Program-made: the position numbers and the translations under genes | DNA from: a virus | Taxonomy: Duplodnaviria > Heunggongvirae > Uroviricota > Caudoviricetes | Virus record (IMG/VR): IMGVR_UViG_2529292907_000021 | Length of the DNA: 42,935 nt | Strand: one strand, 5' to 3' | In this document: one piece after another, positions 1-1,554 of the stretch | How the letters are laid out: each line of letters begins with the position of its first letter | How positions within the stretch are numbered: the first letter of the stretch is position 1 | Notes under the pieces: generated by a model | The model's database searches: none | What the model was told of the DNA's origin: nothing | Seen by the model: only the letters and a program-made list of their open reading frames with translations

Positions 1-732
1 ACGGCGGTCAGAGAAAACTGGCAGTGGAAACCCGCGGTGGCGTACTGCCGCTATGCCGATGATTTTGTCCTCATCGTCAAAGGCACCAAAGCACAGGCGG
101 AAGCCATCAGGGAGGAGTGTCGGGGTGTGCTCGAAGGCAGTCTGAAACTCAGGCTGAACATGGATAAGACTAAAATCACCCATGTTAATGACGGCTTTAT
201 CTTTCTGGGGCACAGGATCATTCGCAAACGCAGTCGTTATGGCGAGATGCGAGTGGTCTCAACGATCCCGCAGGAGAAAGCCAGAAACTTCGCCGCATCG
301 CTGACAGCACTGTTATCAGGCAACTACAGTGAAAGCAAAGTCGATATGGCTGAACAACTCAACCGAAAACTGAAAGGCTGGGCCATGTTCTATCAGTTCG
401 TTGATTTTAAGGCCAAAGTCTTCAGTTATATCGACCGTGTCGTGTTCTGGAAGCTGGCTCACTGGCTGGCCCGCAAATACCGTACAGGTATCGCTTCCCT
501 GATGAGGTGGTGGTGTAAATCACCGAAACCGGGTCAGAGCAAAACGTGGGTTTTATTTGGTAAAACCAATCACGGCAAGCTCAGCGGCGAAATACTGTAC
601 CGGTTGGTGGGGCAAGGCAAGAAGCTGTTCCGCTGGCGGCTACCCGAAGGTAATCCCTATCTGAGGACGGAGACCAGAAACACGTATACATCGCGCTTTA
701 CAGAAGTGGCAATGGCGTTCGCCAGCATTTAA
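1..732 (+). CDS. Group II intron-encoded reverse transcriptase/maturase, C-terminal fragment (5' partial, continues upstream of window)
   Basis: Translation TAVRENWQWKPAVAYCRYADDFVLIV... contains the RT domain YADD motif followed by a basic maturase/DNA-binding-like tail; no stop from base 1 to 732. Confidence 0.8.
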   Translation, partial: TAVRENWQWKPAVAYCRYADDFVLIVKGTKAQAEAIREECRGVLEGSLKLRLNMDKTKITHVNDGFIFLGHRIIRKRSRYGEMRVVSTIPQEKARNFAASLTALLSGNYSESKVDMAEQLNRKLKGWAMFYQFVDFKAKVFSYIDRVVFWKLAHWLARKYRTGIASLMRWWCKSPKPGQSKTWVLFGKTNHGKLSGEILYRLVGQGKKLFRWRLPEGNPYLRTETRNTYTSRFTEVAMAFASI

Positions 733-737
733 ATGGA

Positions 738-771
738 GAGCCGGATGCGCTGAAAGGTGCACGTCCGGTTC
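738..771 (+). ncRNA. Group II intron catalytic domain V hairpin
   Basis: 34-nt hairpin with AGC triad near the 5' base of the stem and a GAAA tetraloop, immediately downstream of the IEP stop codon. Confidence 0.7.
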
Positions 772-825
772 GGGGAGGAGAGGCAGGGAAATAGTCCGAC
801 TACGCCCTGCCTCTTACTCTACTCA

Positions 826-1295
826 GCACATGGCAGGGCTTCGTCTATGTGGCGTTTATCATTGATGTGTTTGCCGGATACATCGTGGGGTGGCGGGTCT
901 CATCGTCTATGGAAACGACATTCGTGCTGGATGCGCTGGAGCAGGCGTTGTGGGCCCGTCGTCCGTCTGGCACCATCCATCACAGCGATAAAGGCTCTCA
1001 GTATGTGTCACTGGCCTATACGGAGCGACTAAAAGAAGCCGGATTACTGGCATCAACAGGGAGTACAGGCGACTCGTATGACAACGCGATGGCTGAGAGC
1101 ATCAATGGTCTTTACAAAGCGGAGGTAATACACCGTAAGAGCTGGAAAAACCGTGCAGAAGTGGAACTGGCCACACTAACGTGGGTGGACTGGTATAACA
1201 ATCGACGATTGCTGGGAAGGCTGGGCCATACTCCTCCGGCAGAAGCAGAAAAAGCTTATTATGCTTCCATCGGAAACGATGATCTGGCAGCCTGA
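826..1295 (+). CDS. IS3-family transposase (OrfB, DDE integrase catalytic domain), 3' exon downstream of the intron; 5' boundary approximate
   Basis: Translation ...[21 protein letters not shown]...[10 protein letters not shown]...[18 protein letters not shown]...[28 protein letters not shown] matches the conserved IS3-family integrase core and C-terminus by eye. Confidence 0.7.
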
Positions 1296-1337
1296 GTTCA
1301 CAGATAAAACACTCTCCAGGAAACCCGGGGCGGTTCA

Positions 1338-1554
1338 CATTGGAAATTGGCGTGGTCACATTCCTGTTTCGCCCTACCCACAACCCAACGATATCAAGTT
1401 GCTCACCCTGCGCAGAGTCCAGATCGAACTTGCGAAGCATGTCAGATGTTACGCCGGAGATGTCAGTGAAAGGTCGGGTTATCAGGTCAATGTGTTGCTG
1501 GAAGAGTGGTTTAGTGACGTGATAGTTCGTTATCAGCTCAGTGTATTTACTCAT
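1338..1554 (-). pseudogene. Phage tail protein (gene following baseplate J, Mu gp48/DUF2313-like position), N-terminal ~72 codons only; truncated by the IS insertion
   Basis: ORF 1102..1554 starts MSKYTELITNYHV... directly after the baseplate J gene with a 4-nt overlap; beyond 1337 the frame runs antisense through the IS, so only the first ~72 residues are phage-derived. Confidence 0.5.

Follow-up and report, generated by a model that had tools for sequence, protein, structure and literature searches.

At the left edge of the 42,935-nt IMG/VR record IMGVR_UViG_2529292907_000021 (the window), the genes of a tailed phage meet mobile DNA. We asked which elements make up this edge, in what order they arrived, and what their arrival meant for the phage. 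A sequence-only reading of the first 1554 nt had proposed a three-layer history, in which a group II intron lies inside an IS3-family transposase ORF and the IS in turn cuts a phage tail gene, and had gone on to propose that the tail fibre genes beyond this point were lost. It did not identify the pair of intron and IS as E.c.I4 in IS629, a common and named element of Escherichia coli. Our analysis makes it very likely that the edge arose by simple nested insertion, with IS629 entering a baseplate wedge gene of a prophage and E.c.I4 then entering the IS.

The window opens within the group II intron E.c.I4

Positions 1–822 (+ strand) are identified by sequence as the last 822 nt of the known E. 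coli group II intron E.c.I4, a bacterial class A intron of 2270 nt, and correspond to intron positions 1449–2270. A stretch of E. coli UPEC-245U (L001) is 100% identical to window positions 1–1338. In L001 the full intron spans 2553–4822 (2270 nt), starting with GTGTG and ending in ...CTAC; the 3′ CTAC ends at window position 822, and the 5′ GTGTG, which lies outside the window, was read in the L001 copy. In the RefSeq annotation of L001, an intact ltrA of 502 aa separates a 5′ from a 3′ fragment of an IS3-family transposase. We took the names E.c.I4 and IS629/IS1203 from RefSeq annotation and published coordinates. The window matches positions 22648–23991 of an E24377A plasmid (NC_009790) at 99.9% identity, so that position 822 maps to 23170. 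This position coincides with the boundary of copy E.c.I4-28, which is tabulated at NC_009790 23170–25439 and thus measures 2270 nt (Leclercq and Cordaux, 2012, supplement, PMC3522654).

The visible part of the intron encodes the C-terminal 243 codons (aa 260–502) and the stop codon of the RT/maturase LtrA at 1–732 (+), with the reading frame open from the first base of the window and a TAA stop at 730–732. This fragment matches the end of the Pfam RVT_1 profile and GIIM. The full 502-aa protein of L001 (WP_001189111.1) matches RVT_1 and GIIM only, and Pfam detected no HNH/En domain in either the window fragment or the full protein. The Pfam result agrees with the assignment of E.c.I4 to bacterial class A, whose intron proteins lack an En domain (Toro and Martinez-Abarca, 2013, PMC3552965).

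Downstream of ltrA, the Rfam model of the group II catalytic intron, domains V/VI (RF00029), matches positions 736–822 (+) with 64.9 bits (E=1.2e-10; gathering score 40 bits). Together with the predicted fold, the match delineates domain V, a 34-nt catalytic hairpin (GAGCCGGAUGCGCUGAAAGGUGCACGUCCGGUUC) at 738–771 (+), and domain VI at 772–822 (+), with the Rfam match ending at 822. The 87 nt at 736–822 fold far better than shuffled sequences (z=-6.45) and have one bulged A in domain VI, at position 816, 6 nt upstream of the intron end; it is a candidate branch point. An intron with an RT/maturase C-terminus and domain V at the start of the window, as the sequence-only reading had it, is therefore what the Rfam and Pfam searches agree on. 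Positions 1–822, the visible part, show no mutation that would disable the intron, and copies of the same sequence have their ltrA annotated as intact. An Rfam search of the whole window found no further intron copies.

The intron interrupts orfB of an IS629/IS1203 element

The intron is followed by exon 2 at 823–1337 (+), which by its sequence is the right end of the IS3-family element IS629/IS1203: the last 515 of its 1310 bp, comprising the C-terminal part of orfB and the right terminal inverted repeat. The orfB frame resumes at 823 and stops at 1293–1295, with matches to the Pfam domains rve, rve_3 and rve_2 at 828–1295. Resumption of the transposase frame had been placed at ~826, its end at 1295 and the IS terminus at 1337, so that the position given for every element was correct to within three bases. 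The right terminal repeat TGAACCGCCCCGG has one match in the window, at 1325–1337 (-), and a terminal-repeat search found no second IS629 end there. The boundary is also apparent from database matches, which in other genomic contexts reach only 1337–1344 and in the related prophages begin at 1337. IS1203 and IS629 are near-identical iso-forms. The DDE transposase of the IS3 family is made by frameshifting between orfA and orfB; both frames, together with the annotated frameshift pseudoknot, are present in the identical L001 copy, outside the window.

The junction between intron and IS is common. It is found in 999 of 5426 complete E. coli genomes, where a genome was counted if one place covered at least 80% of window positions 1–1554. 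By the same 80% threshold, 1177 records in total contain such a place; they include chromosomes and plasmids, and the genomic contexts are many.

The intron lies in the sense orientation relative to orfB, and E.c.I4 has already been described as homing to this orfB position in IS629-type transposase genes. When exon 1 of L001 is ligated in silico to window position 823 onward, a continuous orfB results; L001 minus its intron is a 1310-bp IS in which orfA is intact and orfB runs uninterrupted over the junction. A 276-bp exon-junction probe built in silico retrieved uninterrupted IS copies at 100% identity, annotated as "IS3-like element IS1203 family transposase". In the L001 copy, a candidate EBS1 (CGTAAG) at intron positions 331–336 is perfectly complementary to exon positions -6 to -1 (CTTACG) and is located between the arms of an inverted repeat, a placement predicted from the sequence. 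A search for EBS2/IBS2 in the same copy gave no convincing pair, the sole 6-mer match overlapping IBS1. Recognition of the homing site would thus be consistent with the candidate EBS1–IBS1 pairing. Since the intron is in sense to the transposase gene, splicing would restore the transposase mRNA, which may explain the persistence of such introns at little cost.

The IS splits a baseplate wedge gene

On the phage side of the boundary, positions 1338–1554 (-) hold the first 72 codons plus 1 nt of a baseplate wedge gene (Phage_Wedge1/DUF2612) that encodes 218 aa when intact; a remnant of ~72 N-terminal codons of the minus-strand gene after baseplate J had been noted before. Its ATG overlaps the stop codon of the gene immediately upstream, an intact Baseplate J/gp47-type wedge gene at 1551–2750 (-) (Pfam Baseplate_J; phrog_6, baseplate wedge subunit). 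The remnant matches Pfam DUF2612 (E=5e-13) over profile positions 1–68 of 181, less than a full-length family match, and intact alleles cover positions 1–180. All 217 nt of the remnant are identical in the related contigs L003–L009, where the intact genes lie at 11197–11853. The last three phage bases (CAT on the + strand, ATG on the - strand) are the target site of the IS, which is inserted antisense to the wedge gene after codon 72. The open reading frame list also contains a 150-aa fusion of the 72 wedge codons with antisense IS sequence at 1102–1554 (-). The contig collection lists no gene for such a protein, and the fusion ORF is probably meaningless.

Homologues covering at least 80% of the 218-aa wedge protein occur in 92 phage records, and the protein has weak similarity (E about 4e-3) to the solved baseplate wedge proteins 7kh1 gp17 and Pam3 gp23. 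Given these homologues and this similarity to baseplate wedge subunits, loss of the protein should block baseplate assembly. Splicing of the intron would restore the transposase mRNA, not the phage gene, and the prophage is therefore most likely unable to build a baseplate. That it is probably tail-defective had been proposed earlier and is still likely, for a different reason: the probable baseplate defect follows from the split wedge gene, not from a loss of tail fibres.

Related prophages carry three alleles of the insertion site

At least 24 contigs encode a baseplate J protein identical to that of the window, and we read the state of the insertion site from an inspected subset of these and from L011. 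Three states are present: an empty site (L003, L004, L005, L007 and L008), the IS without intron (L006), and the IS with intron (the window and L011). The proposed three-layer history is thereby supported by natural intermediates.

The five contigs with an empty site are 99.97–99.99% identical to window positions 1337–12750 (11.4 kb). Baseplate J is followed in them by Phage_Wedge1 (218 aa), a tail fibre (357 aa, phrog tail fibre), a 103-aa fibre assembly protein and pphA. In L005, an older draft assembly (GCA_000249595.2, 11311–12518), the gene calls for wedge and fibre come out shorter (180 and 220 aa) on near-identical DNA; these calls probably reflect frameshift or sequencing errors, not biology.

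L006, a 5.1-Mb chromosome, contains an IS of 1310 bp at 11414–12723, in the same position and orientation as in the window and devoid of the intron. Its junctions read ...CCAATG/TGAACC...(1310 bp)...GGTTCA/ATG/TCTATT, with the ATG duplicated. The left terminal repeat, the 1310-bp length and the ATG/ATG duplication were thus read in L006 at the same site, the window itself showing one side only. Genes downstream of the IS in L006 are displaced by exactly 1313 bp and are all retained.

L011, an IMG/VR contig found by a search with the opposite IS/phage junction, shows the other side of the intron-bearing allele. It carries pphA, the fibre assembly gene, the fibre gene, the C-terminal part of the wedge gene, the left end of the IS, the 795-bp exon 1 and 892 nt of the 5′ region of the intron. 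The window contains neither exon 1 nor the 5′ part of the intron, and of the phage gene it has the near side only; other contigs point to a left side like that of L011. Because this intron-bearing allele is anchored in unique DNA and keeps all downstream genes, the far side is expected to be retained here as well. A search with the exact IS/phage junction of the window gave no match in the species-representative genome collection or in IMG/VR. In two further relatives, L009 and L010, the assemblies break at or just inside the IS edge.

These alleles alter the account of the phage gene in two respects. The IS does split the gene after codon 72, as the sequence-only reading held; its term "truncating" is better replaced by "interrupting", since the far part is kept in L006 and L011. 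Comparison with intact related phages, which that reading had suggested as a way to see what was lost, reveals the split of a 218-aa wedge protein and no loss of fibres, the fibre genes following directly. Fibre genes are absent from the window because it starts inside the intron (position 1449). A deletion of the fibre genes, considered as a candidate, is therefore improbable: L006 and L011 represent simple insertion with a 3-bp duplication, and the wedge C-terminus, fibre, fibre assembly and pphA genes are present beyond it.

Other features of the prophage

A 30-bp sequence, AGATAAAAAGAGACCGAATACGATTCCTGT, at 42318–42347 (in L003 also at ~13509–13538) corresponds to the 5′ end of SraC/RyeA, overlapping the 3′ end of SdsR/RyeB, and recurs with 29 of 30 matches at the pphA-proximal prophage end in relatives. 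It is evidently the att core, which places the ~41-kb prophage in the ryeA/sdsR small-RNA locus. A gene for a lambda-type integrase is located at 41159–42244. The early region of the prophage contains a recombination pair at 36099–39913 (+), a RecE-like exonuclease (919 aa, with an Exonuc_VIII N-terminal and a PDDEXK C-terminal domain) and RecT.

Within the head-morphogenesis module, between a DUF2213 gene and the portal gene, Rfam finds a full-length match (146 bits) to the Hfq-binding sRNA STnc490 at 16859–16982 (-). Among the baseplate genes lie three small ORFs of non-structural appearance, at 3112–3309, 4195–4566 and 4563–4919 (all -). One encodes 65 aa and is hydrophobic, possibly a membrane protein (phrog_6632); another encodes 123 aa with a hydrophobic N-terminus and a Cys-rich C-terminus resembling Mu-F/head-morphogenesis proteins; and another encodes 118 aa with a signal-peptide-like N-terminus (phrog_3443). 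A 92%-identical prophage in E. coli GZ2408P has a different single gene in their place, which suggests a variable cargo slot.

Order of the insertions

We propose that a ~41-kb prophage of myovirus type entered an Escherichia coli chromosome between pphA and yebY, at the small-RNA locus ryeA/sdsR. IS629/IS1203 would then have inserted antisense into the wedge gene after codon 72, duplicating a 3-bp ATG target. The orfB of that IS holds the normal homing site of E.c.I4, and the intron would subsequently have retrohomed there in the sense orientation. The outcome would be a 3580-bp composite splitting the wedge gene. Elsewhere the prophage is most likely untouched, and so are its tail fibre genes to the left of the window. 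The order of IS before intron is supported by the single inspected intron-less allele, L006.

The same DNA could also have been reached, though we think it unlikely, by transposition of the 3580-bp IS629::E.c.I4 composite as a unit into the wedge gene, followed by loss of the intron in L006. With both inverted repeats intact, the composite is formally transposable; transposase could come from spliced mRNA or from other IS629 copies, and precise intron loss in L006, or gene conversion by another, intron-less IS629 copy, would look the same as what we see. The occurrence of the identical composite in many contexts on chromosomes and plasmids (the 1177 records above) speaks for such mobility, as does the composite of L001, which is flanked by its own 3-bp CTA duplication. 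However, an IS-only allele exists at exactly this site, and the succession from empty site to IS to IS plus intron needs no reversal. The published analysis of E.c.I4, in which copies from one strain differ by less than 1% and most are particular to their strain, moreover reads the copies as recent independent proliferations into IS copies. The short-read breaks of L009 and L010 at the IS edge fit transposition of the composite and gain of the intron in situ alike.

L011 makes two further explanations less likely than transposition of the composite. The first is that an IS-mediated deletion or rearrangement in the source strain removed the C-terminal part of the wedge gene and the fibre genes, so that the left half of the composite now abuts unrelated DNA. 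Prophages are known to decay by recombination between IS copies, E. coli carries many copies of IS629, and the window shows one IS end only; yet the intron-less L006 and the intron-bearing L011 are both simple insertions with the downstream genes kept, and the phage part of the window is 99.97–99.99% identical to the prophage of its relatives, which leaves such an event quite improbable. The second, an assembly artefact in which the site is intron-less as in L006 and the intron-bearing IS at the contig end was borrowed from elsewhere, draws on the start of the window in a repeat, on the breaks of the short-read assemblies L009 and L010 at the IS, and on the possibility, in principle, that an assembly from short reads took the 1337 bp of repeat at its contig end from another IS629::E.c.I4 copy, but is very hard to credit given that L011 comes from unique DNA on the other side of the site and independently reaches the intron by way of exon 1.

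If IS insertion was indeed followed by intron homing, the three allelic states in near-identical prophages may be a natural record of one chromosomal site before and after an En-less class A intron retrohomed into it in situ, a proposition that we regard as evenly balanced. From the K-12 gene order, the sense strand of the intron would here presumably be the leading-strand template near the terminus. Were this true, the placement would bear on how En-less introns prime reverse transcription at replication forks.

Comparison with known systems

As a mobile composite of E. coli, the intron/IS pair is already described and very common, and inactivation of prophage genes by IS elements is routine. 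An annotator should read the two "partial IS3 transposase" pseudogenes together with the 72-codon phage stub as one intron-split IS in one split wedge gene, not as three decayed genes. As a teaching example, the locus offers the empty, IS-only and IS-plus-intron stages of one insertion in population data.

The disrupted gene matches the profile of the Phage_Wedge1 (DUF2612) family and sits between baseplate J and a tail fibre gene. Its likeness to Pam3 gp23 (PDB 7yfz) and 7kh1 gp17, both from simple myophages, is weak but specific, and suggests the structural role that we ascribe to it. The IS agrees with IS629/IS1203 in its TGAACCGCCCCGG repeat, the rve DDE core, orfA and orfB, the length of 1310 bp and the 3-bp target duplication. 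Likewise, the intron agrees with E.c.I4 in IS3-family elements of Escherichia and Shigella in sequence (99.9–100%), length (2270 nt), 3′ boundary, position in orfB and sense orientation; the element itself is identical, and only the location of its host IS, in the wedge gene of a prophage at the ryeA/sdsR site, is specific to this group of strains.

A parallel is provided by RmInt1 of Sinorhizobium meliloti, an En-less intron whose natural homing site is in the transposase gene of ISRm2011-2 and which is carried along by the IS with little harm to its host. RmInt1 differs from E.c.I4 in class (D versus A), in the family of the IS and in the host, and we know of no sequence relationship between the two beyond the common group II core. 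Every component of the locus is thus a known element in a known configuration, and only the gene hit by the insertion is strain-specific.
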